60,959 bases of DNA from a virus. Taxonomy: Duplodnaviria > Caudoviricetes. Both the position numbers and the translations under genes were made by a program. Location of the stretch: IMG/VR virus record IMGVR_UViG_3300021960_000075, positions 1 to 60,959 of that record. One strand, written 5' to 3'. The notes under the pieces are model-generated. The model was not told the DNA's origin, searched no databases, and saw only the letters and a program-made list of their open reading frames with translations. Positions 1,862 to 56,348 of the stretch are shown here, piece by piece (position 1 is the first letter of the stretch; each line of letters begins with the position of its first letter).

Positions 1862-2595
1862 GCAAAGCTTATAAACAGGCTTTTATTGATAAGTACTATG
1901 AAAAATCAGCAGAACCTTTAGCAGACACTATGGGTTTTTACTGGGCTATGAGAGCTAGAGACTTTATACCAGTAATAGCAAAAACTTTTAAAAGTTATTT
2001 GTGGATGTTGCAAGAGCCTACTGAAAGTGGAGAATTTTTAAATTCTAAGAAAGACACTAGTGTAACTTGTTTTCAAGATTTTCAAGAGTGGTTAGATGTT
2101 TGTTCTACTAAGTCAACTCTTGTAATGTATGAAAAGTTTCAAGCAAATAGAAAAGTTGACCCAATGACTACGAAGCAAATATTTTTTATGAATGCAAAAC
2201 TTCTCGGTGGAACTGAAAATTTTGATGCTTGGTCTGCAGAAAGAAAAAAAGCTTACATTAAAGATTCTCTTTGGAATTTTGAAGATGAGATGGAAGCTTT
2301 TGGAACTGCAGTAAAAGAATTTGCTGGGGTACTTTTACATAAATGTTTTTTTGAAAGGGATGAAGATGAACATAATCATCATATGGGTCTAGAACATATA
2401 GAACTGAATTGGGATTGGACAGTTCAAGAACTATGTGAACTAATCGATGACTTTGTAAAAGTTAACGAAGGTCTTCCAACTAGGAATGAAGAAGCAGGTC
2501 CTCATTCTGAAGAAAGTTTAGATATTATTACTGGAGCTATAGCTTCTGAAAATTTTTTGGACTTTGTAGTTGATTATATTTTAAAGTCTAAGTAA
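1858..2595 (+). CDS. Hypothetical protein
   Basis: GGAGG RBS before ATG 1858 (track starts at 1768). Confidence 0.75.
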   Translation: MSKAYKQAFIDKYYEKSAEPLADTMGFYWAMRARDFIPVIAKTFKSYLWMLQEPTESGEFLNSKKDTSVTCFQDFQEWLDVCSTKSTLVMYEKFQANRKVDPMTTKQIFFMNAKLLGGTENFDAWSAERKKAYIKDSLWNFEDEMEAFGTAVKEFAGVLLHKCFFERDEDEHNHHMGLEHIELNWDWTVQELCELIDDFVKVNEGLPTRNEEAGPHSEESLDIITGAIASENFLDFVVDYILKSK

Positions 2596-2629
2596 AATAA
2601 ATTTACTGCGAATGGACACCGCAGTAACA

Positions 2630-2740
2630 GGAATAAGTCCAAAGAAAGTAGAGTCTTATAAGATAATACTGGAGGGGACAGACATAGTCTTTCATTACAG
2701 TTGCGGGACAGTGTTGGGGGTTCAAATCCCCCTTATTCCA
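2630..2740 (+). ncRNA. tRNA-like RNA with canonical acceptor stem and T-arm but enlarged D and anticodon-position arms
   Basis: GGAATAA/TTATTCC 7-bp stem, GGGGG-TTCAAAT-CCCCC T-arm, discriminator A; 111 nt; no clean 7-nt anticodon loop. Confidence 0.65.
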
Positions 2741-2746
2741 CGAAAA

Positions 2747-2980
2747 GGTAGAACGGAAATTATATAGCTAAAAGTTGTGTGTTGGTAAGTAATAAAGTTC
2801 TACCAAATTTTACGCTCTTCTTAGGAAAGTCCTAGGTCGTATAGATTATCAACTAGTTAACTTACACACAGCGTAAACGATGAGTAAATGAGAGGGTATA
2901 ATTAAATAGTCGGCAGTAGTCTCGCAAGAGATTACAAATTGTCCGATACCCTCCCATCGTCGACTCTCTTCGGAGAGTCG
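2747..2980 (+). ncRNA. Structured intergenic RNA(s) downstream of the tRNA-like element
   Basis: Stems GGTAGAAC/GTTCTACC, TTTACGCT/AGCGTAAA, GAGGGTA/TACCCTC; GCAA and TTCG tetraloop hairpins; no ORF in the track. Confidence 0.55.
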
Positions 2981-3005
2981 TATCCAAAATAATTTTTAAA
3001 TTGAT

Positions 3006-3034
3006 TTGCATTATTTTTCATTATGTGGTATAAT
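3006..3034 (+). promoter_or_regulatory. Sigma70-type promoter
   Basis: TTGCAT-17 nt-TATAAT with extended TG. Confidence 0.75.
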
Positions 3035-3062
3035 AGATTATTAACCAAACGAAAGGATTAAA

Positions 3063-3311
3063 ATGAATACAACATTCATTTATGAAATTATAAAAATGAC
3101 TAGAGGATTAGAAAAGCATCCTTATCACGATTTAGAAGTGGTAGGTGTTGATTCTATAGAATTAAATACTTATGGATTTAATAATCCTGTAGAAATATTT
3201 TCTGAATGGGCTAGCAAAGCTCAGAAGGAATATTCTAAATTACATAAAACAGATGCTAGAGATAGTTACTTCTTTAGGTATCCTGTTATTGCAACAACGG
3301 AGGAGGAATAA
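3063..3311 (+). CDS. Hypothetical protein
   Basis: AAGGA RBS; TAATG coupling to next gene. Confidence 0.7.
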   Translation: MNTTFIYEIIKMTRGLEKHPYHDLEVVGVDSIELNTYGFNNPVEIFSEWASKAQKEYSKLHKTDARDSYFFRYPVIATTEEE

Positions 3312-3568
3312 TGGCTAGACCAAAATGTAGCGTTGGTTGGTGTACCAACGAAGGCAAAATGTATTATCGTGGCGATAGAGTCACTAAGCGTGGACAAGAT
3401 AACCATAAAAAAGGTTACAATGTCGGTGCTGAACAATTTTACAAAAGCTATTACTGGGTTTGTAATATGCATCGCAATGATGGTACTTACGACAAAGCTT
3501 GGGATAAGTTTCAAGAGCAGAGTAGAATTGCTCGTGAAATTTATCGTGCAAACTGGGGAGATTATTAA
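3311..3568 (+). CDS. Hypothetical protein, possible Zn-binding (CxxxxC...CxxH)
   Basis: GGAGG RBS, translational coupling. Confidence 0.7.
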   Translation: MARPKCSVGWCTNEGKMYYRGDRVTKRGQDNHKKGYNVGAEQFYKSYYWVCNMHRNDGTYDKAWDKFQEQSRIAREIYRANWGDY

Positions 3569-5674: not shown

Positions 5675-6934
5675 ATGGGAAGTCGAGACTATTTAGAGAG
5701 TAACGCCGAAGAGCAAAAACAAATTGTAGAAATAAAATTTCCCGATTTACATCCTGCACAACAAGAAGTTAAAGATTCTCCTGCACGTTGGAAAATACTA
5801 TGTGCTGGTAGAAGATTTGGTAAATCAAGACTTGGTGTTCAGTTATGTATGCAAAAAGCTCTAGATGGCGGTCGTGTTTGGTGGGTAGCACCTACTTTTG
5901 CTATCGCTCGTGTTGGTTGGCGTGATGTTGTAGCCGCAGCTCAAAGTTTTCCTAAATCAGTAGGAGTTGAAGTAAAAGTCGGCGATATGACTGTAAATTT
6001 TCCTAATGGTGGTTCTATTGCTGTTAAATCTGCTGATAACCCTCAAAGATTAAGAGGTGAAGGTTTACATTTCTTGGTTATGGATGAAGCTGCATTCGTT
6101 AGAGAAGAAACTTGGACAGAAGTACTTCGACCTACCTTAACTGAAAATAAAGGTTCTGCATTATTTATATCTACCCCAATTGGAATGGATAATTGGTTTT
6201 ATAAGCTATGGGAAAGAGCTTTAGTCGCAGATGATTGGGCTAGATTTCAATTTCCTACTACTGCAAATCCTATGATTGACCCAGCAGAAGTAGAATCAGC
6301 AAGACTAGACTTAGGAGAATTAGTATTTGCTCAAGAGTATCTTGCTGAATTTATTTCTGAAGGTGCTCAAATCTTCAAACCTACTTGGTTTAATTACTAC
6401 AAAGAAGGCGTTGGAAAAGTTATAGCTGATGGAAAAACTTACGATTTGAATGATTTAGTTAAGTTTGCAACAGTTGACTTAGCCGTTTCTATGAGAGAAT
6501 CAGCTGACTACACAGTTATTGGTGTGTTTGGACATCACATTGAAGATGACAAATTATTTATGTTGGATATGTTTAGAGACAGAATAGAAGCACCTGATAT
6601 TATTCCACAAATTAAAAGAATGGTAGGAATACATAATCTCGAATGGGTTGGAATTGAGCGAGCTGGTTATCAGTTAGCACTAGTACAGTTTGCAAGGAGA
6701 GAAGGTCTGAAAATCAAAGAATTAAGAGCTGACAAAGACAAGCGTTCACGGGCACTACCTTTATCTGCTAAGATGGAGAGAGGACAAGTATACTTTCCTA
6801 CAGACGTAGACTGGGTTGCAGACACAGAGCGTGAGCTTTTGACTTTCCCAGTAGGTGAGCACGACGACATCGTCGATGTTCTAGCGTATGCTTGTTTAAG
6901 TAGTGCTAGAAAGAGAAAATGGGAAGCTTATTAA
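5675..6934 (+). CDS. terL: Terminase large subunit
   Basis: Walker A GRRFGKS, Walker B LVMDEA, STP coupling motif, nuclease VDLA...DYT...HDDIVD. Confidence 0.95.
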   Translation: MGSRDYLESNAEEQKQIVEIKFPDLHPAQQEVKDSPARWKILCAGRRFGKSRLGVQLCMQKALDGGRVWWVAPTFAIARVGWRDVVAAAQSFPKSVGVEVKVGDMTVNFPNGGSIAVKSADNPQRLRGEGLHFLVMDEAAFVREETWTEVLRPTLTENKGSALFISTPIGMDNWFYKLWERALVADDWARFQFPTTANPMIDPAEVESARLDLGELVFAQEYLAEFISEGAQIFKPTWFNYYKEGVGKVIADGKTYDLNDLVKFATVDLAVSMRESADYTVIGVFGHHIEDDKLFMLDMFRDRIEAPDIIPQIKRMVGIHNLEWVGIERAGYQLALVQFARREGLKIKELRADKDKRSRALPLSAKMERGQVYFPTDVDWVADTERELLTFPVGEHDDIVDVLAYACLSSARKRKWEAY

Positions 6935-9481
6935 ATGGCTGAAAATAAAAGTTTTTATAGAAGAGCAGTAGAATACCTCCAAGCTCCACCACAAAGAGTG
7001 AATAATACTTCAGGTGTAAAAAGAGGTTCATTAGATAAGTACGAACAAGTACAAAATTCTGTTTGGGGTTACAATACACAATCTGGTTACTTTCCACAAA
7101 AATTAATTGATGAACTTGGAGATGGCTTAGGTAATTCTGCTGTAGTCGCTTGTTTGAATGTGTTGGCAACTTCCTTTGCTGAGCCAATGCTTAAAGTTTA
7201 TAAAAAACAAGAAGGTGGAAAACTAGAACAAGATGCTCATCCACTTGAAGTCTTAATGCAAAGACCAAATGAATTTATTTCAGGCGGTGTTCTTTCTCAC
7301 TATATTGTTACTTCCTTATCAGCACACGGAGATGCTTTTTTACTAAAAGTTAAAAATAACAAAAATCAAGTTGTCCAATTAATTCCATTGATGCCTTCCT
7401 ATGTAAAAGTTAGAGGAAATGAAAAAGAATTAATTACACATTATGAATATCACGCTGTTCAAAGAAGAAATGATTTAAATCCTAACTTTATAGAGATACC
7501 TAGAGAAAATATGGTTCACATCCGTCAAGGTATGGACCCTGATGACCACAGAAGAGGTTTTTCGCCACTACGTTCTGTAATGAGAGAGCTAGCTGGTGAC
7601 GAAGCAGCAGGACAATTCGCTGTTGCTTTGTTACACAATATGGCAGTTCCGGGAGTTATTTTATCTCCTAAAGACGACACTATGGGTGGACCAAGTAGAG
7701 AAGAAGCAGAAGCTATAGCACAGTCTTTTAAATCTAAATTTTCAGGAGCTAACAGAGGTGCTCCAATGATTATGACAGGTGCTATGGATATTCAAGTTGT
7801 ATCGTTTACACCTGAGCAGTTAGACCTTAAAGGTTTAAGAAGATTGCCTGAAGAGAGAGTTTCTTCAGTTTTAGGTGTGCCCGCAATTCTCGCCGGACTC
7901 GGGGCTGGATTGGAAGCGGCAACCTACAACAACACTCGTGAATTAAGAGAGTTTTTTACGGAGCAAAAAATGATTCCTATGTGGTCTGCTGTAGCAGCTG
8001 AATTAACACATCAATTATTACATAGAGACTTTGTAAATAACGATTATGAATATTTTTGTGCTTATGACTTAGACCAAGTTAGAGCATTATCAGGTGACCG
8101 ACAAGAGCAAGTTAAAACTATGAACTCAGGAGTTCAGGGTGGATTTGTAACAATAGGAGAAGCGAGAAGGGCATTAGGACTAGACACTGATGAATCACAC
8201 GACGTATATTTACGACCATTGAATATGGTGGCTGTGCCAGAGGGTGAAACAGGAGTTGTGACCTTACCAAAGGAGCCTGACACCCCAGCACAACCATCAG
8301 ATGTTTCTGATGATAATAATGATGAAGAACAACCAATGGAAATTACTATTGATGAAAACGGCAAAGCTACATTAAATAGCGATAGTTTTAAACCTGAAAC
8401 TAACAGAAGTAAAAGAGTTGTTAGAAGAAAGAAAGAAGTTTCTATTGATTTAACAATGGAGTTTAAAGCTTCTGAAGGAGATTATCTCATAGATGATAAA
8501 GCACCAGCTATTTCAGCTCAAGTTAAAAAAGTTTTAGAAAAGAAAGTTAAAGACCACAATGCTTCTAATCCTAAATACAAAGCTAGTTATGGTATGTTAG
8601 CTACAGTATTTAAACGAGGTGTAGGTGCTTATCGTACAAATCCTTCATCAGTTAGAGGAAATGTTACAAGTGCTACTCAATGGGGTATTGCTAGAGTAAA
8701 TGCATTCTTAAAAGGACTTAAAGGTTCTTTCCCTAGAAAACCATTTGACCAAGATTTATTACCAAGTGGTCATCCATTAAGTTCAAAAAAAGGTATGAAG
8801 TTAGCTAGTGTAAAAGTTGGACAAACAGTTAGTTGGTCAATTAATAAAGACCCTGACCCACCTTCAATAGTTCACGGTGTAGTTGTTTCTGTTAATTCAG
8901 AGAAAAAAGAAGCAACTATGAATGTTTGGGCAATTATGGAAGATGGTTCTCATAAAAAAACAGATAGAAACGTAACAATGCCTTTTAGTAAACTAAAAGC
9001 TATTAAAGACTGGCGTGATGAAACTAAAGCTGCAAAAGATAAAATTACGAACTTTCCTTCATCAGGAGATAATCAAAAGATTAGTTTAAGTAATTCTAAG
9101 TTTAAACAATTTCCTGACCACGCTTATGTTAAAGATTTGAAAGAAAATTATCCAAGAATATGGAGAAGAGCTGGTACCGGTGGTAACCCTCCAACTTCTT
9201 TTACTGGAAATGATGCTTTCAGAAATTGGGCAAAATATAAATCAGGAGACAGAAGCCCAGCAGTTCTTGCTTGGGTAAAAAGAAGAGAAAGCTTTATGGC
9301 TCGACACGAAGGTAACACTCGTCTTAACGGTATTATTGCTGTTATGAAATGGGGAGGCGTTACTAAGTCAGGTGTTAGTGCTATGAAAAAAATCGTCAAT
9401 GAGCAAAAACAAAAAGAGCGAGATAGAGCAAAAAAAGCTAACGATATGATTAGCCCTGACAGTGACGATTTGACAGGTTAA
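6935..9481 (+). CDS. HK97-type portal protein with ~400-aa C-terminal accessory domains
   Basis: HPL..L..RPN, GFSPL, TIGEAR motifs in the first ~440 aa; follows terL. Confidence 0.9.
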   Translation: MAENKSFYRRAVEYLQAPPQRVNNTSGVKRGSLDKYEQVQNSVWGYNTQSGYFPQKLIDELGDGLGNSAVVACLNVLATSFAEPMLKVYKKQEGGKLEQDAHPLEVLMQRPNEFISGGVLSHYIVTSLSAHGDAFLLKVKNNKNQVVQLIPLMPSYVKVRGNEKELITHYEYHAVQRRNDLNPNFIEIPRENMVHIRQGMDPDDHRRGFSPLRSVMRELAGDEAAGQFAVALLHNMAVPGVILSPKDDTMGGPSREEAEAIAQSFKSKFSGANRGAPMIMTGAMDIQVVSFTPEQLDLKGLRRLPEERVSSVLGVPAILAGLGAGLEAATYNNTRELREFFTEQKMIPMWSAVAAELTHQLLHRDFVNNDYEYFCAYDLDQVRALSGDRQEQVKTMNSGVQGGFVTIGEARRALGLDTDESHDVYLRPLNMVAVPEGETGVVTLPKEPDTPAQPSDVSDDNNDEEQPMEITIDENGKATLNSDSFKPETNRSKRVVRRKKEVSIDLTMEFKASEGDYLIDDKAPAISAQVKKVLEKKVKDHNASNPKYKASYGMLATVFKRGVGAYRTNPSSVRGNVTSATQWGIARVNAFLKGLKGSFPRKPFDQDLLPSGHPLSSKKGMKLASVKVGQTVSWSINKDPDPPSIVHGVVVSVNSEKKEATMNVWAIMEDGSHKKTDRNVTMPFSKLKAIKDWRDETKAAKDKITNFPSSGDNQKISLSNSKFKQFPDHAYVKDLKENYPRIWRRAGTGGNPPTSFTGNDAFRNWAKYKSGDRSPAVLAWVKRRESFMARHEGNTRLNGIIAVMKWGGVTKSGVSAMKKIVNEQKQKERDRAKKANDMISPDSDDLTG

Positions 9482-10884: not shown

Positions 10885-12093
10885 ATGGCAAATTATAAAG
10901 AAGAAATTTCCAAGGTTAGAGCTCAGTTGAAAGAAGCTTTTGACTCTCAAGTAGATGGTAAATATACACCTGAAGCTAAAGAGAAAATCAAAGGTTTAAA
11001 TACTGAATTAGCAGGACTTATCGATAGCCAAAACTTAGAGAATTCAAAGTCTAAGAATGAAAAAGCTATGGAACAAGAAGTCTATGCATCTGAAACATCA
11101 CAAGCTGGACCAAAATCTGTTGGTCAAATGTTTGTTGAATCTGACGCCTACAAAGGCTACAGAGACAATGGTGTTAAAGGTGTAGATTCTGAAGTAGCTT
11201 TTAAAGCAACTTTAGGTGCTGGAACAACTGAACAATTTCCACCGGAAGTTCTAAGACAACCGGGAATCTTAGAGTACGCTCTTAGAGACCCAGACTCTGT
11301 CATTGGGCTTTTTGACCAAATTGATACAAACCAAAACTCATTTGCATATATGGAAGAAACAACCTTCACTAACGCTGCTGCAGAGCAAGCAGAAGAGGCA
11401 ACAACTGCTGAAGCTACATTAGACTTCACAGAACAAACTGCACCAATTAGAAAAGTTGGTGTCTTCTTGCCTGTTACTGAAGAACTTCTTGCTGATGTAT
11501 CTGGAATTCAAGGTTATGTCAATTCAAGATTAGCTGCAATGATGAAACTACGTTTGGACAGTCAATTACTTTCCGGAAACGGAACTGCACCAAACTTAGA
11601 AGGCGTATTAACAAAATCAGGAATCAATGCATTCGACTATACTGGCGGCCCTTATGGTGGCGAGTTAGGAAAAATTGGTCAAATCTATCAAGCAATCACT
11701 GAAATCAGAAAAGATGCTTTCGTAGAACCTGATGCAATTGTTATGCACCCATCAGACTGGTATGACATCGTTACATCCGTAACTGACATTACAACAAGTG
11801 GTTCTAAGAACCCATTGTTCGTAGTTGCAGGTGGATTCGGTGCTGATGCTGCTCCAAGAATTTGGGGACTCCCAGTCGTAGCTTCTACTGCAATTTCCGC
11901 AGGTACTGTACTTGTTGGTAAATTCGGTGGTGGCGAAGCTGCACACGTTGTAATGAGACAAGGTGTTGACTTAGCTGTATCTGACTCTCATAGTGACTTT
12001 TTCCTTAAAGGAAAATTAGCTATCAGAGCAACAATGAGACTTGGTCTTGTTGTTTACAGACAAGCTGCATTCTGTAAGATTACAAATATGTAA
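10885..12093 (+). CDS. Major capsid protein (HK97 fold)
   Basis: Position after protease; LLSGNGT.PNLEG, IVMHPSDW, RIWGLPVV, C-terminal R.G..V.R..AF. Confidence 0.92.
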   Translation: MANYKEEISKVRAQLKEAFDSQVDGKYTPEAKEKIKGLNTELAGLIDSQNLENSKSKNEKAMEQEVYASETSQAGPKSVGQMFVESDAYKGYRDNGVKGVDSEVAFKATLGAGTTEQFPPEVLRQPGILEYALRDPDSVIGLFDQIDTNQNSFAYMEETTFTNAAAEQAEEATTAEATLDFTEQTAPIRKVGVFLPVTEELLADVSGIQGYVNSRLAAMMKLRLDSQLLSGNGTAPNLEGVLTKSGINAFDYTGGPYGGELGKIGQIYQAITEIRKDAFVEPDAIVMHPSDWYDIVTSVTDITTSGSKNPLFVVAGGFGADAAPRIWGLPVVASTAISAGTVLVGKFGGGEAAHVVMRQGVDLAVSDSHSDFFLKGKLAIRATMRLGLVVYRQAAFCKITNM

Positions 12094-19285: not shown

Positions 19286-22200
19286 GTGGCACAACAAATA
19301 GGTTCTTTAGAAGTAGGAATAGAAGGTAATACCTCTGGTTTAAATAATTCTATTGGTGCTGTCCAAATGAAAGCTACAAATGCTTTCAAGAAAATTGGTT
19401 CTGTAGCTAATGGTATGATAACTGGTGCTCTAGTTGCAGGAGTGGCTGCTGTAGCTGTAGGTTTAGCTGCAGGTGTAAAAGCAGCTATTGACTTTGAAGC
19501 AGCATTCGCCGGTGTTAGAAAAACATTAAGTGGTTCAGATGCAGAATTAAAAGCTGTATCAGATGAATTAATCAATATGGCAAGGTTCTTGCCTCAAACA
19601 GCAGCTGAGCTAGCAGCTATCGCTCAAGTCGGTGGTCAATTAGGTATTGCTGCTAAAGATATTGCTCAATTCACAGAAGTTATTGCAAAATTAGGTGGGG
19701 CAACAGACTTAGCAGGTGAGCAAGGTGCCACATCAATGGCTAGGTTTATGAAAGTTATTGGTGAATCTGTAGGACAAACTGGAGTATATGCAAACATATT
19801 GGTTGCTTTAGGTAACAATATGGCAACTACTGAATCTGAAATAATAAACTTAGCTCTTAACTTTGGTGCATTAGGAAAGCAAGTAGGATTAAGCGGTCCT
19901 GAAATATTAGCCTTTTCTGCAGCTATGAGGGAAATGGGTCAGCCAGCCGCAGCTGGTGCTACAGCTCTTAATAAATTATTTACTCAATTAAATAGAGCTA
20001 TGTTAGGAGAAGGTGGATTAGCTGAGTTTGCTGATATAGCTGGAATGTCTATGTTTGAGTTCCAAGCACTTATGGAAACAAGTATGGCTGCTGCAGCAGA
20101 AGCAGTTCTTAATGGTCTTAATGCTATGGGTGAAGCACAAAAAGACCAAATATCAGCATTAGATAGTGTTGGTTTAGCTAGAGACAGAGTTTCTCGTGCC
20201 TTAATATCAATGGCAACAAATGAAGAAGGTCTAGCTAAAGCAAGACGTATTGCTAACGAAGAATTATTTAGACAAGCTGCTTTAAATGAAGAGTTTAAAA
20301 AGAAACAAGATACAGTAGCTGGTCAGATGGATATTTTAAAATCAAAAGTAAATTCATTTGCAATACGAATGGGTGAAGCTTTACTTCCAGCAATTAAAGC
20401 AGTTGTTAAATTTATAGGAAGATTTTTTGATGGTTTATATTACTTAGTAAATGCTTTCAAAAATACAAGTGCACAAGCTGAAAAATTTCAGAAAAAAGTT
20501 ATGGGTAGTGCTTTTGTATTAATGATTATAAAAGTTGTTACTTGGATTGCAAAACTAGTTAAAAACCTTAAGGGAATGGGTGATGAGATAGCAAAAGTTA
20601 CTACAAAATTTGGTAAATTTGGTAAATTCTTGGGTAAATTTACTAAATTCTTTACTGGAGCAGCAGCTGGAGCAGCTTTATTTGTTTATGAAGTTGCTAA
20701 GTTCGGTGACTTACAAGCAATAATAGATAACTTTTCACAAAGCGTAGATAAATTAACAGTTAGTTTTACTTTCTTAAAACAAAATGGTATAGGTGGATTA
20801 GACCAACTTACTACTGATGTACTTCAAGCGATGGTTGATGGTATGGAAGATGACAACCCATTAAAAGCAGTTTTGAAAGAAATGTTAGAAGGCGGAAAAT
20901 TAGATGCTGATGTAGCTAAAGATTTAGCTTCAACAGGTTCAGCAATATCCGAGGAATTATTAACTTCTATACAAGATGGATTTGGTGTTGGTGCAGCCGG
21001 CGGTGATATGAAATTAGATTTTCGTTGGCTTGAAAGTATAAAAAAAGCACTTGCTGAAGAAGGATTAGGAGATAGTCAACTTTTTAAAGATATACAAGCT
21101 TTACAGGATGCAATAAGAGGTGATGCAGATAAAGAAACTTTAAATAATTTAGCACAACAAGTTATTGCAAAATTAGCTATAGTCGAAGCAGGAAAAGATT
21201 CCTTAACCGTTGAAGAAAGTTTAAGAAAACTTATTACGGATAATGTAGTAGCATTATCTACAGCTTCAGGTAAGTCAGTAGATGACATTAAAAAAATAAT
21301 ATCGACAGAGCAGGGTCTCAAAACATTTGTTCAAGAATTTGGTATGGCTATAGAAGGTGTACCAGCACTTTATGATATTTTATTCCCACCTGAAAAAGAC
21401 CCAGTTCAAGAAGCTTTACAGCAATTAAAAGAAGATGCTTCAGCATTCAAACAGATGGTTGCTGATATATTTGCTCCAACTGAACTGCAATTCAAGTTAG
21501 ATTTTGCTGAAATGGATTTGGCAGATGCTCATAAAGACCACGCTGACCTCCATAAAGAACTTGGTGATTTACACGAAGAAGATGCTAAGTTACAACAGGA
21601 TTTAATAGATATACAGCAACAAGAGTTATTGACTCACGAAGAAATACTGAAAATTCAAGAGCTTGAATTAGAAAATCAAGAATTAAAGATTAAGCACGCT
21701 CAAGAAGCTGCTATGACATTTGAAGAGCAAGTAGATTATCAAGATAAAATTAATGAAGCTTTAGAAATAGAACAAAGATTAAGAGATGGTTTAGCTCTTT
21801 CTGCAAATGACCAATTACGTAGAGAGAAACTTAGAAAAGATAGAAGAAGAGTTGAGTTAGCAGCACAACAGGGTTCTTTGGAATTTGCTGATTTAGAACT
21901 TAAAGCTATTGATGAAAATATTAAAGCTATAGAAGATAAAGCTGTTACTCAAACTGATGCTACTTTGGCTAGAAGAGAAGCACAGGAGATTCTAGATAGA
22001 GCTGAGGAGAGAAGGCTTAAGGAAAAAGAAAAGATTGCTGATAATATTGCTAAAATCCAAGAGATTAATTTAGAATCTGTTGCTCGCCGTAATGAAGAGA
22101 TTATTGAAATTGAAAAGCGTCGTGCTGATATTGAAGAACGACTAAAAGAGATTCCTAGAGAGATTAAAGAAGCTCATTGGGATATTCACAAAGCTCAAAA

Positions 22201-22765
22201 AGCTGTTTACGATGCTACAGCTGATATTCAAATAGGTTTTATGGACTTGAGAGCTGTTGGTGAAGAAGAGATGAAAGAACTAGCAAAGGCTATTGGTATG
22301 CCATATGAGATGTTAGATGGTCTTATGACTCTATTAAACCACGCAAGAGTTGAATCAGGACCAATTTTTGATGAAATTATTACCAGAGCTACAGATACAA
22401 AACATACATTTGCTCAAGACCCATTCACTGGTGGACCATCAGTTTCAGATGTTCAAAGAAAAAATTATGGTTTCTTACAACAGGGAACAGGAATTGTAGA
22501 TTTCCTAAGACACGGCGGTGGTGGATTCAAGACTGGAAATAAATTTATTGCTGGTGAATATGGTCCTGAATTAATAAAAACATTCCCGGGTGGTGGAATG
22601 GTTACTCCATTAGGTACTGGTGGTGGCACTACAATGCAAAATACTATAAATCTAAATATTACTGGATTACCAACTGACCCTATAGCTGCTAGAAGGATAG
22701 CACAAAATATTCAAAGAGAACTTGTTAAACTAGAAAGAGAAGGTAGAAGCGGTGTCGTCAGGTAG
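19286..22765 (+). CDS. Tape measure protein
   Basis: 1159 aa, Ala/Gly-rich N-terminal core (AIDFEAAFAGVRKT), coiled coil, C-terminal GE.GPEL. Confidence 0.92.
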   Translation: MAQQIGSLEVGIEGNTSGLNNSIGAVQMKATNAFKKIGSVANGMITGALVAGVAAVAVGLAAGVKAAIDFEAAFAGVRKTLSGSDAELKAVSDELINMARFLPQTAAELAAIAQVGGQLGIAAKDIAQFTEVIAKLGGATDLAGEQGATSMARFMKVIGESVGQTGVYANILVALGNNMATTESEIINLALNFGALGKQVGLSGPEILAFSAAMREMGQPAAAGATALNKLFTQLNRAMLGEGGLAEFADIAGMSMFEFQALMETSMAAAAEAVLNGLNAMGEAQKDQISALDSVGLARDRVSRALISMATNEEGLAKARRIANEELFRQAALNEEFKKKQDTVAGQMDILKSKVNSFAIRMGEALLPAIKAVVKFIGRFFDGLYYLVNAFKNTSAQAEKFQKKVMGSAFVLMIIKVVTWIAKLVKNLKGMGDEIAKVTTKFGKFGKFLGKFTKFFTGAAAGAALFVYEVAKFGDLQAIIDNFSQSVDKLTVSFTFLKQNGIGGLDQLTTDVLQAMVDGMEDDNPLKAVLKEMLEGGKLDADVAKDLASTGSAISEELLTSIQDGFGVGAAGGDMKLDFRWLESIKKALAEEGLGDSQLFKDIQALQDAIRGDADKETLNNLAQQVIAKLAIVEAGKDSLTVEESLRKLITDNVVALSTASGKSVDDIKKIISTEQGLKTFVQEFGMAIEGVPALYDILFPPEKDPVQEALQQLKEDASAFKQMVADIFAPTELQFKLDFAEMDLADAHKDHADLHKELGDLHEEDAKLQQDLIDIQQQELLTHEEILKIQELELENQELKIKHAQEAAMTFEEQVDYQDKINEALEIEQRLRDGLALSANDQLRREKLRKDRRRVELAAQQGSLEFADLELKAIDENIKAIEDKAVTQTDATLARREAQEILDRAEERRLKEKEKIADNIAKIQEINLESVARRNEEIIEIEKRRADIEERLKEIPREIKEAHWDIHKAQKAVYDATADIQIGFMDLRAVGEEEMKELAKAIGMPYEMLDGLMTLLNHARVESGPIFDEIITRATDTKHTFAQDPFTGGPSVSDVQRKNYGFLQQGTGIVDFLRHGGGGFKTGNKFIAGEYGPELIKTFPGGGMVTPLGTGGGTTMQNTINLNITGLPTDPIAARRIAQNIQRELVKLEREGRSGVVR

Positions 22766-30523: not shown

Positions 30524-33500
30524 ATGGCACAAAAAAATCCAATAAGAGGTGATTTTAACGAATCTAGTGAACTAGTTGGTTTAGCCGAATTTCAAGCTTC
30601 TGACTTTATTGGTATAGAAGATGGTGGTACTGGTGCTATTACAGCTTCAGGTGCTAGAACTAATTTAGGTCTAGAAATTGGAACAGATGTCCAATCTTGG
30701 GATGCACAATTAGATGATATTGCAGGTTTAACACCTAGCGATGGTTATTTTATTGTTGGTGATGGTTCTAATTTTGTTACAGAATCAGGAAATACAGCTA
30801 GAGCATCTTTAGGTTTAAGCACTTCTGACTCTCCAACATTTAATAATTTAACAGTATCAGGTAACTTAACTGTTTCAGGTACTCAAACCATATTAGAAAC
30901 TGAAACTTTAACAGTAGATGATAATACTATTGTCCTTAATTCAAATGCTACAGGTTCAGCTTCTGAAGACGCAGGTATAGAAATAGAAAGAGGAGACGAT
31001 ACAAATGTCACTCTTATTTGGGATGAGTCAAATGATAGATGGACTGTAGGCTCAGAATCGTTTGTTGCTGCAACATTTATTGGTAATCTTACCGGTAATG
31101 TTACAGGAACAGTATCAGATATAAGTAATTTTGATACTGATGATTTATCAGAGGGCTCTACTAATTTATACTACACCGACACAAGGGTTGGAACTTACCT
31201 GACAACAAACAGTTATGCTACTGAAAGCTATGTAGATAGTGCAGTAGCTTCTGAAAATGAATTAAGTGAGATGAACGATGTTACTCTTACTAGCCCTGCT
31301 AATGGTGACTTTTTAAGATACAATGGTTCTGTATGGATTAATGACCCTGTCAATTTATCAACAGATACTATTGGTGATTATGTACAAAGTATTACTGGTG
31401 GAACAGGAATATCTATTGATGTTACTTCTGGTGAAGGACAAACACCTACATTAGCAATTGACTTTACAGAATTTGATACTGGAAGTATAACAGAAGGAAG
31501 TAACTTATATTTTACAGAAGAAAGAGTTGACGATAGAGTTGCTGCATTATTAGTAGATTCAGTAACTTCTGGAATAGACATTAGTTATGATGACGTAAAC
31601 AATCAATTAACAATTAGTTCTGACCTTTCTGAAATAGTCGAAGCATTACAAGATAACGTACAAGGATTATTTAGTGGTGGTACTGGAATAACAACAAACT
31701 ATGATGATGGTTCTAATACATTAAGTTTATCAATAGATTTTACTGAATTTACTTCTGATGACATAGTAGAAGGTTCTACAAATTTATTTGTTACTGATGA
31801 AAGAATAGACGATAGAATTAATGCTTTACTTGTTGATAGCACAACATCTGGTATTGATATATCTTATGATGATGTAGCAAATTCATTAACACTTAGTGTA
31901 GATTTATCAGAAATTGTTGAAGCACTCCAAGACAATGTAGAAGGTTTATTCTCTGGTGGAACAGGTATCACAACAAGTTATGATGACGCAGCAAATACCC
32001 TTTCTCTTTCAATTGATTTTACAGAATTTGATACAGACAATGTAGTAGAAGGAACAACAAACTTATTCTTTACTACAGCTAGAGTTGATAGTCATTTAAG
32101 TGGTGGAACAGGAATTAGCTACACTACTGGTGCAATAGCAATTGACTTTAGTGAGTTTGATACTGGAAGCATTACAGAAGGAAGCAACTTATATTACACA
32201 GATACTAGAGCAGATGGAAGAATTGCAGCAGCTAGTATTGGAGATTTATCAGATGTAACTCTAACTTCTACAGCTACAGGTGACATACTTAGATACAATG
32301 GTTCAGCATTTGTAAATGAACCACTTAACTTAGGTACTGATACTGAAGGTGACTATGTAGCAAGTCTTGTAGCAGGAACAGGTATAACTCTAACTAATAA
32401 TAGTGGAGAAACTTCAACACCTACTGTTGCAGTAGATATGACTGCTTTTGATACAGATGATTTATCTGAGGGCAGTACAAATCTTTACTATACCGATACA
32501 AGAGTAGGTAGCTACTTAACAACTAATAGTTATGCTACACAAACTTATGTAGATAACGCTGTAGCAAGTGAAAACGAATTAAGTGAAATGAATGATGTCA
32601 CATTGACATCAGCTACTACTGGAGATTTTTTACAATACAATGGAAGCGTTTGGGTTAACATTGCACCTGATACTGATGACATTGCTGAGGGTACTAATCT
32701 TTACTTTACAACTTCTAGAGTAGATACAGAGATAGATAGTTATGTTACTGGAGGAACTGGCGTAACAGTATCTTCCGGTCAAATAAGTATTGGTCAAGCA
32801 GTATCAACAACTTCTAACGTAACATTTGCAGATGTAACTGTTAATGGAGATTTAACATCAGGTGGTCAAGTTCTTATAGGAACAAATACTATTACATTGA
32901 ACTATGATGTTCAAAGCACAGATAACACACTTGATATTGATATAGAGTTTTGGAGAGGTAATTTAGCCCATAAACACTTTAGTTGGGATGAACAAAATGA
33001 TAGATTTACTGTTAACGGAGAAGATTTTGTAGCTGGTACTGTGATAGCAGCTTTAACTGGTAATGTTACTGGTAACGTTGCTGGTAATGTTACTGGAGAC
33101 TTAACAGGAGATGTTACTGGAGATGTAACAGGTAACCTAACAGGTAATGTTACTGGAAATGTAACTGGTAACGTTACAGGAAATGTTGTTGGAAATGTAA
33201 CAGGAGATGTTACTGGTACGGTTTCTAGTTTATCTAATCACGATACAGATGATTTAACTGAAGGCGTAACTAATCTTTACTACACAGACACTAGAGCAAG
33301 GGCTGCTATAAATTATAATGACGCAGGTGGAGACGGCTCATTAACATATGACAACTCAACTGGAGTTATAACTTACACTGGACCATCAGCTTCAGAAGTT
33401 AGAGCACATTTTACTGCCGGTACAGGTGTTGCAATATCTTCAGGTGAAATATCTATAGGACAAGCTGTAGCTACTACTGATAATGTAACATTTGCAACTG

Positions 33501-36500
33501 TAGAAACTTCTGGAAATGTAACTGTTGGTGGTAACTTAACCGTATCAGGTACAACTACAACAATAAATACTGAGACATTAGTAGTTGATGACAACATTAT
33601 TATCCTTAATAGCAACGCAACTGGAAGCCCAACTGAAAATGCAGGTTTTGAAATTGAAAGAGGAGATTCTGCTAATAAATCTTTCTTATGGAATGAAACA
33701 GATGACAAGTGGACATTAGGTTCAGATACATTAGTTGCAGGAACTGTTGAAGCAAATCTAACAGGTAATGTAACAGGAACTGTTTCTTCCTTATCAAATC
33801 ACGACACAGACGACTTAACTGAAGGTACTACAAACTTATACTACACAGATGCAAGAGTAGATGCTTATCATACAGGTGGAACTGGAATTAGCTATGCTTC
33901 AGGAACAATAGCTGTTGATTTTACAGAATTTGATACCGATAGTATCACAGAAGGTTCTTCAAATGTTTATTACACTACTGCACGTGCTAGAAGTGCTGTC
34001 TCAGGTGGAACAGGATTAGATTACAATAGCTCAACAGGTGTATTTGATATTGATAGCACAGTAGCTACATTATCAGGAACTCAAACTCTTACCAATAAAA
34101 CAATAAACTTTGAAGATAATACTGCAATAGTTGAGTTTGCAGTAACAGTAGCTGATGTTAGTGGTAATAAATATCATTTAGATGGTGAAACAGCTGCAAG
34201 TATTCAGCTTGTTCCGGGAATTACATATAGATTTGACCAGAGTGATAGCACAAACTCTGGGCATCCATTAGTATTTTCAACAACTCAGGATGGAACTCAC
34301 AACTCAGGTTCTGCTTATACAACAGGCGTAACTACAAATGGAACTCCGGGTTCTTCAGGAGCATATACACAAATAGTTGTCAATGCTGCAACTGCTGATA
34401 CTTTATACTATTATTGTTCTTCTCACTCAGGAATGGGTGGAAGTTCTGTTGTTTCAGTAGCAGGTTCTAGTTTAACTGCAAGCACAACTGATAACTTAAC
34501 AGAAGGCAGTTCTAACCTTTACTTTACAGACGCAAGGGCTAGAAGTGCAATATCTGTTACTGATAGTGGTGGAGATGGTTCTCTATCCTATAACTCAAGC
34601 ACAGGCGTAATTACTTATACAGGTCCTAGTGCAAGTGAAGTTCAAGCACATTTTTCAGCAGGTACAGGTGTAACTTATTCAGCAGGACAATTTAGTATTG
34701 GACAATCAGTTGGAACTACAGATAGTGTAACATTCAGTACTGTTACAGCAAACTTAACTGGAAATGTGACAGGAAACGTAACTGGAAATGTAACTGGAAC
34801 TGTATCATCATTATCAAACCACGATACTGGAGATTTAACTGAAGGTAGTAACCTTTATTATACAGATACAAGAGCAAGAGGTTCAATAAGTGTTACTGAT
34901 GCAGGTGGAGACGGAAGTCTAAGTTACAACAATACAACAGGTGTTATTACTTATACTGGACCAAGTGCAGCAGAGGTTAGAGCTCACTTCACAGCAGGAA
35001 CTGGTGTTTCTATTACTTCCGGTGAAGTTGCAATTGGTCAGTCTGTTGGAACTACAGATAACGTAACATTTAACGATTTAACAGTTTCAGGAAACTTAAC
35101 AGTTAGTGGAACAACAACCACAGTTAATACTGAAACTATAAACCTTGCAGATAACATAATTGTCTTTAATTCAAATGCAACAGGAAGTGCTTCTGAAAAT
35201 GCAGGAATTGAAATAGAGCGTGGAGATGACGCTAATAAAACTTTAATTTGGGATGAAACCAATGATAGATGGACAGTAGGAAGTGAAACTTTTGTAGCTT
35301 CTACATTTATTGGAAACCTAACAGGAAACGTAACAGGAAATGTTACCGGACAAGTTTCTGATATTTCTAATCACGACGCTGCTGACTTGTCTTATGACCC
35401 ATCAGATTCAGAAAACCTTACTGCAACAAATGTTAAAGGTGCTTTAGATGAATTAGATTTAGCAAAAGTAAATAAGAGTGCTTTAGGTACTACATTAATC
35501 TACTACCCTACTGATACAGCTGACCCATCAATTAGTGGTTACTACAGAATGGTTACTTCTATATCTGATACTGATTACGATACAACTGCTGTAAATATAT
35601 CAACAGGTTCTATTACTGCTAATAACCAACAAGTAGGTGCAGTTATTGGTGACGCAGGAATATTTCAAGGAAATCCGGGTTATATAGAAATTCACGTAAC
35701 AGGTTCAATAAGAAATGTATCCGGTGGTAGTGCTGGTTTCTATTTTAAGGTATATCATAGAAATTCAAGTGGCACAGAAACTCTTATGGGAACTTCTAAT
35801 GCTACACCTAATGTAACAAACACTTCATATCAAGAATTTCACGCAGACGCAATATTAACTAGTCCACAAGACTTTACTGCAACAGATAGAGTTGTATTTA
35901 AATGGTTTGCAGCGAATTTATCAGGTTCTGCAACTTATGATTTTCAATACGGCGGTACTTCTCCTATAAGAGCTACTTTCCCTGTTCAGACAGCATTAAT
36001 ACTTCACGACCAAGAAGCTGATGATGTCCAAACAAACACTACTGCTTTCAACGGAATATTAAGTACTTCTGAAACTACTGTACAAGCAGCACTCAATGTT
36101 ATTGATGACATTACAACTACTGATGTTCCAGAAGGTACAAATCTTTATTACACAACAGCTAGAGCTAATACAGACTTTGATACTAAGTTAGCTGCTGCTG
36201 ACACTGATGACTTATCAGAAGGTACTACAAACCTATATTTTACTAATGCTAGAGCAGACGCAAGAATTGCAGCTGCAAACATAGAAGATTTAAACAATAT
36301 AGGATTTACTGCACCGGGTGCATCTGATGATGCAAAAGTTATTAGTTGGGATAATACAGCAGGTAGCTTTGCTTTATCATCACTATCAGGATTATCAGGT
36401 TCCGGTGAAGTAAACACAGCTTCTAATATTGGTACTGCTGGTGTAGGTGTCTTTGATGGAAAAGTTGGAGAAGACTTACAATTTAAAAATATTAATGCTG

Positions 36501-41854: not shown

Positions 41855-42328
41855 ATGCGTAAAATATTTTATGTTCCTGCTAATAAGGACATAGAAGAAT
41901 ATAGAAGTCAATGGGACAAAATCGTAACTGAAGTTGTTCACGGTGTTTCTGAAAATATAAAAAATTATATTGATAACGAAGACGTAGGTCAATTAGTTTA
42001 TATACCTGAATACAGAGTATTAGATACACCTAGAAACATTTCTAACGCTACTTATTTTCAAATTATCTACTTTGATGATTTTGAATCTATAAAAGAAGAA
42101 AAACCTGAAGTAATTTGTGAAATTTGGAAAAAAAATTTAGATAACCCATCTGAAGCCGAAGTAAAGCATACACAATATCCATTACACTTTGTTGTAGGTA
42201 AAAGAAATTGGGTTTCTGACCACTTAAAACTACCTATTGGATGGTTTGATTTCGTTATAAAAGTTGATGGTGTAGAAGTTGAATCTTCTGAATGTGCTGT
42301 CTATGAATACAATTTAGAAGAAGAATGA
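41855..42328 (+). CDS. Hypothetical protein
   Basis: GGAGG RBS. Confidence 0.75.
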   Translation: MRKIFYVPANKDIEEYRSQWDKIVTEVVHGVSENIKNYIDNEDVGQLVYIPEYRVLDTPRNISNATYFQIIYFDDFESIKEEKPEVICEIWKKNLDNPSEAEVKHTQYPLHFVVGKRNWVSDHLKLPIGWFDFVIKVDGVEVESSECAVYEYNLEEE

Positions 42329-43688: not shown

Positions 43689-43689
43689 T

Positions 43690-44238
43690 ATGGAAGCTGT
43701 AAAGATTTTAGATTTATTTAAAGGTAATCAATTAGAAGAAATTAAATATTGGTTAGATAACGAATCTCCTTTTGTTGACCCTGATAATTGGAATATAAAT
43801 GTAAATCACTATGAAAAAAAATGTTCTGAATTAGATACTTTACATATATCAACAACAGATAAAGCAAGAGAAATATTTGCAGTTCATAACTTACTACCGA
43901 CATTCTCAAGAATAATGTGGTATGACAAATCTCCTGAAGGTGAAGAACACATTGACACAGGAGCAACAGAATTTACAGTATTATATAATTACTACTCTGA
44001 AGACCCTGTAATTTTTTATTATGATAGTGTTGAGATACAGTTAGAAAATGAAGAAGCTATTGCTTATTGTGGAAAAAATAGAATCCACAATAGAAATAAA
44101 TCAGATGGCGTATCTATTTGTTTGGGTTTTAATTATGCAACTCCAAGCAATCCCCACTTTGTTTTAGCAGAGTATAATGGTAATAGGTTTCAATATAAAT
44201 CAAATAGAGATAAGGTAGATGTAGATTGGCTATTGTAA
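43690..44238 (+). CDS. Divergent 2OG-Fe(II) oxygenase-like protein
   Basis: HID...EAIAY.G....H.R; similar to 46606-47139. Confidence 0.65.
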   Translation: MEAVKILDLFKGNQLEEIKYWLDNESPFVDPDNWNINVNHYEKKCSELDTLHISTTDKAREIFAVHNLLPTFSRIMWYDKSPEGEEHIDTGATEFTVLYNYYSEDPVIFYYDSVEIQLENEEAIAYCGKNRIHNRNKSDGVSICLGFNYATPSNPHFVLAEYNGNRFQYKSNRDKVDVDWLL

Positions 44239-44933: not shown

Positions 44934-44934
44934 T

Positions 44935-56346: not shown

Positions 56347-56348
56347 AA

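Follow-up and report, generated by a model that had tools for sequence, protein, structure and literature searches.

A conserved tRNA-shaped cloverleaf, not called as a tRNA, as the predicted head of a larger non-coding RNA in uncultured marine phages

A 60,959-nucleotide stretch of viral DNA (IMG/VR record IMGVR_UViG_3300021960_000075, positions 1 to 60,959; Duplodnaviria, Caudoviricetes), referred to below as the window, contains in an intergenic gap a sequence of 111 nt having the outline of a tRNA, with enlarged arms and no proper anticodon loop. Is this a tRNA, a mimic of one, or part of something else? In the original prediction, it was taken to be a tRNA mimic, rather than a decoding tRNA, which could be processed by RNase P and RNase Z and act as a decoy for anticodon nucleases or other tRNA-binding proteins. 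The observation on which this prediction was based is confirmed here, since every feature listed was found in the sequence. The interpretation is only partly supported: the element is tRNA-shaped and is not a decoding tRNA, but it is not a free-standing gene, and the anticodon-nuclease decoy has no specific support. The coordinates of the elements identified are given in Table 1.

Table 1. Elements of the predicted RNA and its surroundings (window coordinates)
Position	Strand	Element	Details
2570-2598	+	Predicted sigma-70-type promoter of the RNA	-35 TTGATT in the last codons of the upstream gene; 17 nt; -10 TAAAAT, overlapping the stop codon TAA 2593-2595; predicted start at about 2605
about 2605-2985	+	Whole non-coding RNA, about 385 nt	Four domains and a closing hairpin
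2603-2627	+	5' leader hairpin	Perfect 8 bp, TTACTGCG/CGCAGTAA; 9-nt loop AATGGACAC; ends 2 nt before G2630
2630-2740	+	Domain 1, cloverleaf (type-A head)	111 nt, four arms
2630-2636/2733-2739	+	Acceptor stem	GGAATAA/TTATTCC, perfect 7 bp; pair 3-70 is A-U
2637-2640/2676-2679	+	D-like arm	GTCC/GGAC, enclosing AGTA/TACT and the TCT-TATA-AGA hairpin; inserted hairpin at 2647-2670
2681-2715	+	Long anticodon-like arm	GACAT-A-GTCTT and GGGAC-A-GTGTT
2692-2704	+	Anticodon-like loop	13 nt, TCATTACAGTTGC, holding the conserved ACAGTTGC
2716-2732	+	T arm	GGGGG 2716-2720, TTCAAAT, CCCCC 2728-2732
2740	+	Discriminator	A, followed by CGA; no CCA encoded
2747-2804	+	Domain 2	Closed by GGTAGAAC/GTTCTACC and followed by a T run
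2809-2877	+	Domain 3	Closed by TTTACGCT/AGCGTAAA; hairpin CTTAGG-AAAGT-CCTAGG at 2820-2836
2879-2961	+	Domain 4, 3' core	GATGA/TCGTC; GAGGGT/ACCCTC; GTCGG/CCGAT; 8-bp hairpin 2916-2935 with GNRA loop GCAA; 11-nt bulge with -10-like TATAAT at 2897-2902
2944-2983	+	Near-invariant 40-nt block	CGATACCCTCCCATCGTCG-N-CTCTCT-NN-GGAGAG-N-CGTAT; contains the anti-Shine-Dalgarno-like CCCTCCC
2961-2980	+	3' hairpin	CGACTCTC-TTCG-GAGAGTCG; no T run follows directly
3005-3034	+	Separate strong promoter	TTTGCA, 18 nt, TATAAT with TG; for the next gene, 3063-3311, and the genes that follow

The minimum-free-energy fold of 2630-2740 alone is exactly the cloverleaf, at -36.7 kcal/mol. A fold shifted by one base (2631-2741) gave z = -2.79, 1 of 200 shuffles being as stable, while the whole intergenic stretch 2595-2990 gave z = -5.44, none of 100 shuffles being as stable. 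A covariance model (R1) built from 8 sequences recovered the domain full-length in 17 places across 25 sources, in every type-A relative, and only once in the window (91.5 bits). The places recovered include sequences which were not used to build the model, namely those of L001, L012 and the L035/L041 group (L numbers denote homologous loci in relatives). In the resulting alignment (13 distinct rows, 28 pairs), 91.9% of the cells pair, as compared with 77.7% in shuffles (0 of 500 shuffles reach this value) and 38-49% when the partner is slid by 1-3 columns; 17 pairs show changes on both sides, and the acceptor and T stems are 100% paired. Although this alignment was fitted to the model, single-sequence folds gave the same four-arm shape in 9 of 10 homologues. 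The population variants found in four runs, all of which were DNA contigs, keep pair 7-66: 2636 A>G gives G.U, and 2733 T>A goes with a GGAATAT 5' strand.

No tRNA or tmRNA model accepts this domain. ARAGORN found no tRNA or tmRNA gene in the window, and neither at default settings nor with introns allowed did it find any in the window or in 21 homologous loci. At thresholds lowered to 70-80%, it called a tRNA-Cys (aca) at about 2660-2741, but the boundaries and anticodons assigned differ between homologues (aca, att, atc, tat or none). The Rfam tRNA model gave no hit at E up to 10 over 2400-3100, and the tmRNA model (RF00023) matched only the 17-nt T arm, at 15.1 bits against a gathering score of 47. 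The anticodon-like loop is 12-16 nt long in relatives and only ACAGTTGC is conserved in it, instead of a 7-nt loop with a conserved anticodon. The alanine identity pair G3.U70 of tmRNA is absent from the window; across the 13 distinct type-A rows, the pair is AU in 11, GC in 1 and GU in 1, and L001 has G3.U70 with discriminator A. The homologues do not show the random decay which had been named beforehand as an outcome that would point to a pseudo-tRNA, since their arms covary. The textbook T loop is particular to the window: relatives have TTCGTC, GTCACT(C), TTCATT, TTCAGT and TTCACG, and the D region carries an insertion of 7-50 nt. Features that RNase P and RNase Z read are kept, however: a 7-bp acceptor stem and a 5-bp T stem, an unpaired base at -1 and a discriminator followed by a single-stranded trailer (CGA or CUA) without CCA. 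In all 10 type-A sequences listed, G is at +1 and A both at -1 and at the discriminator; since the two A's cannot pair, the acceptor stem stays at 7 bp.

The cloverleaf is domain 1 of a conserved structured RNA. The 250 nt flanking it are also conserved and structured: RNAalifold on 10 homologues gave 67 consensus pairs, 13 of which show changes on both sides. The closing helix of domain 2 has 7 pairs, one with changes on both sides in 4 sequences; this domain is shorter in the window than in relatives, which also carry an inner TTGTAT-NNNN-ATACAA hairpin and two ACTAAATGT repeats. In domain 3, RNAalifold pairs 107-114 with 194-202 and 118-124 with 128-134 show changes on both sides, and by eye the closing helix also changes on both strands between head types (ACGCC/GGCGT, CCTCAC/GTGGGG, GCTCAC/GTGAGC). 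Domain 4 is present in every family member. It was aligned in 17 homologues, and a covariance model of the core (R2) scored 132.5 bits on the window, 99.7-133.1 bits on 22 full-length true hits and 94.8 bits on one hit cut at its 5' end. Its pairs are 94.7% formed, as compared with 84.7% in shuffles, and six of the 8 pairs of the GNRA hairpin change on both sides, whereas GAGGGT/ACCCTC shows no change on both sides and hence has no covariation support. The model-fitted alignments (A6 and A9) share the caveat mentioned above, and A9 also contains one spurious minus-strand row. In the 40-nt block, 36 of 40 positions are identical in 17 of 17 aligned homologues, and its 18-nt core is exact in 37 IMG/VR contigs. 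Pair A2963-T2978 of the 3' hairpin is G-C in 5 and A-U in 13 of 19 distinct rows, and a terminator scan did not call this hairpin on the + strand. The G.U pairs fit the + strand only. No conserved ORF was found: the window's 51-codon ORF is absent from the other 9 type-A homologues.

The promoter predicted over the upstream stop codon has 9 of 12 consensus matches, and an equivalent promoter scores at least 8 of 12 in 15 of 20 heads examined, including 5 of 5 type-D heads at 10-11 of 12. The separate promoter of the next gene has 10 of 12 matches and is conserved in all the aligned homologues. The leader loop motif TGGACA(C) recurs upstream of the cloverleaf in L002, L003, L008, L012, L014, L017, L035 and L041, and is absent in L001, L009 and L013; in type-D relatives, the same motif sits inside the cloverleaf instead. 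No run recorded as RNA was found to contain positions 2300-3400 of the window, so that the promoter, the transcript ends and any cleavage are predictions from sequence.

The 5' head is a swappable module. Among the window plus 37 IMG/VR contigs, 8 records carry a type-A head, 4 a type-A head plus a tmRNA-like one, 9 a type-B head, 8 a type-D head, 4 a plain hairpin and 4 another head or none, and 1 is cut. A cloverleaf head is therefore present, in three unrelated versions, in 29 of the 37 assessable records (the window plus 36 contigs). Types B and D also fold as cloverleaves, and their acceptor and T stems differ between members in a compensating way, as seen by eye; also judged by eye, these stems are 6 + 6 bp in type B and 7 + 5 bp in type D, apart from two type-D members with 8 + 5. 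The second head of L041 and L035 matches the Rfam tmRNA model end to end with the inner ~280-294 model positions deleted, at 42.1 and 33 bits, both below the gathering score. That whole different cloverleaf versions occupy the same slot argues for recognition by overall shape, not mimicry of one tRNA species.

In every locus inspected the RNA lies in an intergenic gap, and where the flanks were annotated (the window and L068), this gap is upstream of the terminase, portal and capsid genes. The carriers are related uncultured marine and estuarine siphovirus-like contigs. A blastn search of 2500-3100 against the phage records gave no match, and nothing in Rfam 15 or in the 50,697 phage records searched matches the RNA. 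By tblastn, the capsid is at most 38% and the terminase at most 29% identical to any deposited phage. The neighbouring proteins have no Pfam or PHROG family, and a search of the Atlas with the upstream protein gave nothing above chance; since the gene upstream in type-C loci is unrelated (hhalign probability 0.14%), no protein is constantly linked on that side. A downstream gene of 82-86 aa was found by tblastn in 26 of 38 records. Literature searches found no description of this RNA, although a catalogue of 8,495 candidate structured RNAs from IMG/VR (PMC10690425) may list part of it in its supplementary tables.

We are highly confident that the cloverleaf is a genuine, conserved, tRNA-shaped domain of a larger non-coding RNA. 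How it works is a more tentative matter, and the mechanism we favor is somewhat less likely than not to be correct. Only the shape is shared between head versions: an acceptor/T-arm stack of about 12 bp, G at position 1, an unpaired -1 base and a single-stranded 3' side. The head therefore seems to work by tRNA shape, and we infer that it is read by host enzymes recognizing this shape. RNase P would cut at G2630 and remove the leader hairpin, while RNase Z or a similar enzyme would cut after A2740. The products would be a stable tRNA-sized RNA displaying the conserved ACAGUUGC loop and a separate 3' RNA of about 245 nt carrying the invariant core, the head thus being a processing and stabilizing handle for the effector part. 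What the analysis itself shows is the conserved and covarying fold, the absence of tRNA and tmRNA calls at default settings, the structured flanking RNA without a conserved ORF, the strand preference of the G.U pairs, the census and shapes of the heads, the invariant bases around the acceptor stem and the scores of the upstream promoters; cleavage by RNase P and RNase Z is inferred, on the grounds that both enzymes recognize the acceptor/T-arm stack rather than sequence. Several facts do not fit readily. In type B, the predicted -10 element ends only 8-9 nt before G1, in which case transcription would start at or next to the cloverleaf and no 5' processing would be needed. The leader carries a conserved motif (TGGACAC in type A, GCGGGACA in type D) which swaps places with a motif inside the cloverleaf between types, which suggests that the leader is functional and may stay attached. 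The T loops in relatives are 5-7 nt long and often not of the UUCRANY kind, so that the tRNA elbow may not form; the two type-D members with 8 + 5 bp depart from the 12-bp stack; and since eight of 37 assessable members lack a cloverleaf, the core can work without one.

The swapping motifs and the type-B start are also compatible with the possibility, which we consider less likely but do not exclude, that the cloverleaf is not cut out and docks the whole RNA onto a host machine that binds tRNA shape (the ribosome, EF-Tu, SmpB or RNase P itself), or that it is an architectural domain of a large self-assembling RNA, as the tRNA-bearing GOLLD RNAs may be. The extra head of L035/L041, which keeps tmRNA-specific sequence features (G3.U70, UGGAU..GAC and a canonical T arm), the CCCUCCC of the invariant block, which may resemble the 3' end of 16S rRNA, and the parallel with the architecture of GOLLD described below would also fit this view. 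On the other hand, a perfect acceptor/T stack with a free 5' leader is expected to be an RNase P substrate whether or not this is "intended", the unrelated head sequences imply no sequence-specific partner, no Rfam match to GOLLD or ROOL appears at any threshold used, and the RNA is half the size of GOLLD or less. It is rather unlikely, though not excluded, that the excised cloverleaf soaks up a host tRNA-targeting defense nuclease or another tRNA-binding protein. Phages carry tRNAs that counter tRNA-cleaving defenses, the cloverleaf has tRNA shape without decoding ability, and an anti-CRISPR protein-RNA complex built on tRNA and tmRNA fragments (PMC11662646) shows that tRNA-shaped RNA can act in counter-defense. 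However, the loop which would have to mimic an anticodon loop has no conserved anticodon context, heads of entirely different sequence replace one another, neither the 250 nt of conserved RNA attached to the head nor the members without a head are explained, and no defense or counter-defense gene was seen next to it, where the neighbors have no Pfam or PHROG family.

A decoding tRNA with insertions or introns, a tmRNA or a decaying pseudo-tRNA is very improbable and already largely refuted by the results above, despite the 7/5 acceptor/T geometry and the canonical T loop of the window. Short frames ending in the TAA of the TATAAT bulge do exist in some homologues, but since their frame, length and start are not conserved and the window has none, a tmRNA tag was rejected. 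A DNA-level site (an attP core copied from a host tRNA or tmRNA gene, or a cos/pac or operator site) is likewise very improbable. It could account for the near-invariant block, which contains a perfect palindrome, is far more conserved than the flanking proteins and lies upstream of the packaging genes, and whose pairing partner strand changes in L043 without compensation; ssrA fragments left in phages by integration have moreover been described (PMC9004378). But both halves of each cloverleaf are present and covary, which an attP copy of a 3' half would not give, the GNRA-capped hairpin covaries, and many G.U pairs fit one strand only. No integrase turned up among the 30 window ORFs scanned against Pfam and/or PHROGs, which are not all the ORFs, and a pattern scan of 185,579 species genomes for a prophage or host copy gave 5 hits, all false. 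Smaller readings were also rejected. AGGAAAGTCC at 2823-2832 resembles the conserved P4 strand of RNase P RNA, but in relatives it is just a covarying hairpin with loops AAAGA, AAGGT or ATGGT. Pairing of the ACAGTTGC loop with CAACT in domain 3 is not conserved (L012 and L002 lack it). A search of the window for a target of the invariant block returned only its own internal partner, at chance level (4 matches, with as many in 19 of 100 shuffles). A kink-turn in the AAAG/GRAG internal loop and a CsrA sponge based on the GGA motifs, considered by eye only, do not fit consistently.

A bolder hypothesis, which is improbable on present evidence, is that this is a new class of large modular phage RNA in which interchangeable tRNA- or tmRNA-mimicking heads would deliver a universally conserved 3' effector to the host translation machinery (ribosome, EF-Tu or SmpB). 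The effector would be the near-invariant block with its anti-Shine-Dalgarno-like CCCUCCC, held in a helix by an internal Shine-Dalgarno-like strand. The RNA would thereby reprogram or protect translation at the switch to late gene expression, and might act as a self-assembling particle of the GOLLD kind. Large, intricately folded non-coding RNAs are rare, and each new class has taught new biology. The present one is conserved across dozens of uncultured marine and estuarine phage contigs, and it shows modular evolution of a kind we did not find described: three unrelated cloverleaf heads, plus a tmRNA-like domain apparently copied, plugged onto one nearly invariant 3' core. This amounts to a natural experiment on what tRNA shape alone is good for in a bacterial cell (processing, stability or docking), and provides a defined 40-nt sequence whose extreme conservation calls for a partner. 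Standard annotation misses this RNA completely, and it could be mistaken for a pseudo-tRNA or an attP site.

The RNA can be compared with several systems. In bacterial Y RNA YrlA (PMC4201824), as here, a module that mimics tRNA is joined to another functional module in a non-coding RNA; no Rfam Y RNA match was obtained, however, and no Ro60/TROVE family was hit among the 30 window ORFs scanned, which are not all the ORFs. YrlA closes through a long 5'/3' stem that binds Ro, and no such stem is known in the present RNA. Phage T4 RNAC and RNAD are likewise phage-encoded stable small RNAs of unknown role, from the tRNA region (PMC3014915). They are associated with tRNA-type processing. They lie in a cluster of real tRNA genes; the present contig has no tRNA gene at all. 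In MALAT1 mascRNA (RF01684) and the viral 3' tRNA-like structures, a cloverleaf that is not a tRNA is recognized by RNase P and RNase Z to cut a longer transcript into two functional RNAs, but these are eukaryotic or belong to plant RNA viruses, and the Rfam mascRNA match obtained here is at chance level (15.4 bits, E = 3.7).

With the tRNA-like domain of tmRNA, including the phage-encoded tmRNAs of marine phages (PMC9004378), the head shares an acceptor stem and T arm with a reduced or odd D region, a long helix in place of the anticodon arm and an A discriminator. It differs in its 3-70 pair and in the absence of a mRNA-like domain, pseudoknots or tag frame inside the cloverleaf and of an encoded CCA, and the large structured part lies 3' of the closed acceptor stem, not inside it. 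As regards GOLLD and ROOL, no Rfam match was obtained at the gathering threshold, or at E up to 10, 1 or 5 on the window region and 11 homologous loci. The RNA measures 360-440 nt as compared with more than 800 nt for GOLLD, and its embedded modules are not real tRNAs. Like GOLLD, as described in a cryo-EM preprint (bioRxiv 10.1101/2024.12.08.627333), it is a phage-encoded, multi-domain RNA of unknown function, in which a universally conserved 3' region is joined to a variable 5' region, and in which tRNAs (sometimes, in the case of GOLLD) or tRNA-like modules (here) are covalently embedded.

The 60,959-bp virus contig carries a tailed-phage packaging and structural block on the + strand. The element analyzed here lies in a 467-nt gap between a 275-codon gene of unknown family and an 82-codon gene. 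The original prediction, a tRNA-like RNA with enlarged arms preceded by a hairpin, held as an observation, since every feature listed in it was found at its position. These features include a perfect 7-bp acceptor stem, the A3-U70 pair, a D-like stem GTCC/GGAC enclosing a nested hairpin and a long bipartite "anticodon" arm with a 13-nt loop. When folded alone, the stretch from the acceptor stem to the discriminator gives exactly this cloverleaf, at -36.7 kcal/mol, and the whole gap is far more stable than shuffled sequences (z = -5.44).

Coordinates of the features in the window and, in the last two lines, in relatives
Feature	Position	Details
Predicted sigma-70-type promoter	2570-2598	-10 element over the upstream stop codon
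Upstream gene	ends at 2595	275 codons, unknown family
Upstream hairpin	2603-2627	8 bp
Predicted RNA start	near 2605
Cloverleaf	2630-2740
Acceptor stem	2630-2636 with 2733-2739	perfect, 7 bp
T arm		GGGGG-TTCAAAT-CCCCC
Discriminator	A2740	followed by CGA
Domain 2	2747-2804
Domain 2 and following T run	2747-2812
Domain 3	2809-2877
Domain 4	2879-2961
-10-like hexamer	2897-2902	TATAAT or TATACT in core homologues
Near-invariant block	2944-2983	40 nt
Closing hairpin	2961-2980	UUCG loop
Second promoter	3005-3034	strong, conserved
Downstream gene	starts at 3063	82 codons
Large terminase	5675-6934	+ strand
Portal	6935-9481	+ strand
Prohead protease		+ strand
HK97-type capsid	10885-12093	+ strand
Tape measure	19286-22765	+ strand
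2,483-codon ORF	30524-37975	downstream of the tape measure; presumably a giant tail or fibre protein
Auxiliary gene cluster	42325-47881 and 55465-60957
One-mismatch copy of the loop motif	46660-46673	TTAATTACAGTTGC, inside ORF 46606-47139
tmRNA-like second head, locus L041	1029-1111
tmRNA-like second head, locus L035	1031-1111

ARAGORN detected no tRNA or tmRNA in the window, in 21 homologous loci, or when introns were allowed, and Rfam 15 gave no match at gathering thresholds over the window. A permissive Rfam scan of positions 2400-3100 returned only a 17-nt T-arm match to tmRNA (15.1 bits) and chance-level hits. At lowered ARAGORN thresholds, the calls differed in their boundaries and anticodon from one homologue to another.

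The gap is conserved in uncultured viral and metagenome contigs. A protein search with the upstream gene yielded one relative (locus L001), exact and degenerate DNA patterns yielded 7 IMG/VR contigs, and the same pattern yielded 14 metagenome loci, 10 of which are true and 4 of which are GC-rich false hits. Ten distinct sequences carry a cloverleaf at the same place, and nine of them fold into the four-arm shape on their own. A covariance model (R1) built from eight of these sequences recovered all the copies of this head type (type A) full-length, including the non-seed loci L001 (41.7 bits), L012 (56.7 bits) and the L035/L041 group (58-61 bits), and found only one copy in the window. On the resulting alignment, 91.9% of the pairs were formed, as compared with 77.7% in shuffles and 38-49% when the partners were slid, 17 of the 28 pairs showed changes on both sides, and the acceptor and T stems were always paired. 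Since this alignment is fitted to the model, the percentage is inflated, but neither the number of pair types nor the single-sequence folds depend on this fitting. Public DNA contigs differing slightly from the window keep pair 7-66: the substitution 2636 A>G gives G.U, and 2733 T>A goes with a GGAATAT 5' strand. The T-loop sequence, the size of the D-arm insertion (7-50 nt) and most of the big loop apart from ACAGTTGC are not conserved. Two matches to this loop motif were found in the window, where 0.07 are expected by chance.

The 250 nt downstream of the cloverleaf are conserved as well. RNAalifold applied to ten homologues predicted 67 pairs, 13 of which show changes on both sides, and resolved three further domains and a closing hairpin, the cloverleaf being one domain of a larger RNA. 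No ORF is conserved across the region, and the many G.U pairs fit the + strand only. A promoter equivalent to that predicted over the upstream stop codon scores at least 8 of 12 in 15 of the 20 heads examined, and the RNA therefore looks like its own transcription unit. The closing hairpin has no T run directly behind it, so the position of the 3' end is uncertain. The closing stem of domain 2 (GGGAGCC/GGCTCCC in relatives) is followed by a run of 4-9 T, which looks like an intrinsic terminator and could give a short form of the RNA of about 200 nt; part of this T run also pairs with the A run after domain 3.

More distant loci, sharing only domain 4 and the hairpin, were obtained by searching with the downstream protein. 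In an alignment of 17 homologues, the 40-nt block, which includes an anti-Shine-Dalgarno-like CCCTCCC, is identical at 36 positions, whereas the neighbouring upstream and downstream proteins are only about 33-67% identical to those of the window. A covariance model of the core (R2) found 23 true copies in 25 sources. In the counts made on that alignment, which include one spurious weak row, 94.7% of the pairs were formed as compared with 84.7% in shuffles, with strong covariation in the GNRA-capped hairpin, but the helix GAGGGT/ACCCTC has no pair changed on both sides and hence no covariation support. The -10-like hexamer is kept in 17 of 17 core homologues, even in locus L043, where it is shifted by 2 nt and the surrounding helix strand has changed; it could mark an internal promoter for an RNA of about 80 nt, or may be a pause element. 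In some relatives (loci L032, L038, and L044), an extra gene of about 50 codons with two CxxC pairs (zinc-ribbon-like) and its own TTGACA promoter is inserted between the RNA and the 85-codon gene that follows.

The 18-nt heart of the block occurs exactly in 37 IMG/VR contigs. Depending on what precedes the core, the window plus these 37 contigs can be sorted into eight records with a type-A head, as in the window, four with a type-A head plus a second head, nine with a type-B head (a 55-170-nt mini-cloverleaf beginning GCAGUA), eight with a type-D head (an 80-84-nt cloverleaf beginning GCCUGUG), four with a plain hairpin, four with another head or none, and one that is cut by the contig end. 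A cloverleaf head is thus present in 29 of the 37 assessable members. Types B and D fold as cloverleaves, and their acceptor and T stems differ between members in a compensating way, as judged by eye and not from formal counts. The position relative to the packaging genes is kept in a type-D contig. Among the DNA contigs compared over positions 2560-3070, one (from run X5) joins 2713 to 2939; it is a plain-hairpin (type-C-like) relative sharing with the window only the GTTGCGGGACAG motif and the 3' core, and is not a deletion form of this phage.

The second head in L041 and L035 aligns with the Rfam tmRNA model from the first to the last position with the interior deleted, at 42.1 and 33 bits, respectively, below the gathering score of 47. 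This 80-nt element, which sits between the type-A cloverleaf and domain 2, has G3.U70, the UGGAU..GAC motif, a canonical T arm and discriminator A followed by CUA, without any mRNA-like part, and is a copy of the tmRNA tRNA-like domain alone. The same element is present in loci L036, L042, L064, L070, L074, and L088.

No close cultured phage exists, and no copy of the element was found in bacterial genomes with the pattern used. The sequencing runs containing the DNA are labelled marine, estuary, lagoon, aquaculture and outdoor metagenomes. The auxiliary gene cluster includes two 2OG-Fe(II) oxygenases, an FkbM-type methyltransferase hit and two DUF6065 hits, these three being below cut-off, and two or three glycosyltransferases. 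None of the 30 ORFs scanned hit an integrase or DNA polymerase family, so no replication gene was seen among them, and the contig may be a partial genome.

Although the head sequences are unrelated, they share an acceptor/T stack of about 12 bp (7+5, 6+6 in type B, and 8+5 in two type-D members), G at +1, -1 and discriminator bases that cannot pair (A and A in 10 of 10 type-A sequences), and a 3' continuation without CCA. This is the feature set read by RNase P and RNase Z, and we therefore tentatively propose that the head is a shape-recognised handle for tRNA maturation enzymes, which would cut the transcript into a leader, a stable tRNA-sized RNA and the 3' effector RNA. The conserved fold and its covariation are shown by the present analysis, whereas cleavage by these enzymes and any function of the head are inferred. 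This reading is weakened by the fact that the predicted promoter in type B would start transcription at the cloverleaf itself, and that the leader holds a conserved motif which trades places with a motif inside the cloverleaf between types A and D. In addition, the T loops are often non-canonical, and eight members do without a cloverleaf head.

The main rival, which we consider possible but rather doubtful, is that the head might stay attached and dock the whole RNA on a tRNA-binding machine, or help to build a larger RNA architecture. The interpretation given in the original prediction, that of a tRNA mimic that could act as a decoy rather than decoding, was partly supported: the element is not a tRNA or tmRNA, but the decoy role, although not excluded, seems unlikely, since it explains neither the attached 250 nt nor the unrelated head versions, and the loop does not look like an anticodon loop.

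No description of this RNA was found in the literature searches, although a large catalogue of candidate structured RNAs from IMG/VR may list it in its supplements. The element is a tRNA-mimic module on a phage non-coding RNA, which is of clear interest to RNA biologists even if its function is so far only inferred. By ARAGORN and Rfam, the element in the window does not satisfy the defining criteria of the tRNA, tmRNA, GOLLD/ROOL and Y RNA families. The nearest known systems are the tmRNA tRNA-like domain, GOLLD RNA, which has a conserved 3' region, a variable 5' region and embedded tRNAs, YrlA, the T4 RNAC and RNAD species, whose roles are unknown, and tRNA-like processing signals such as mascRNA.
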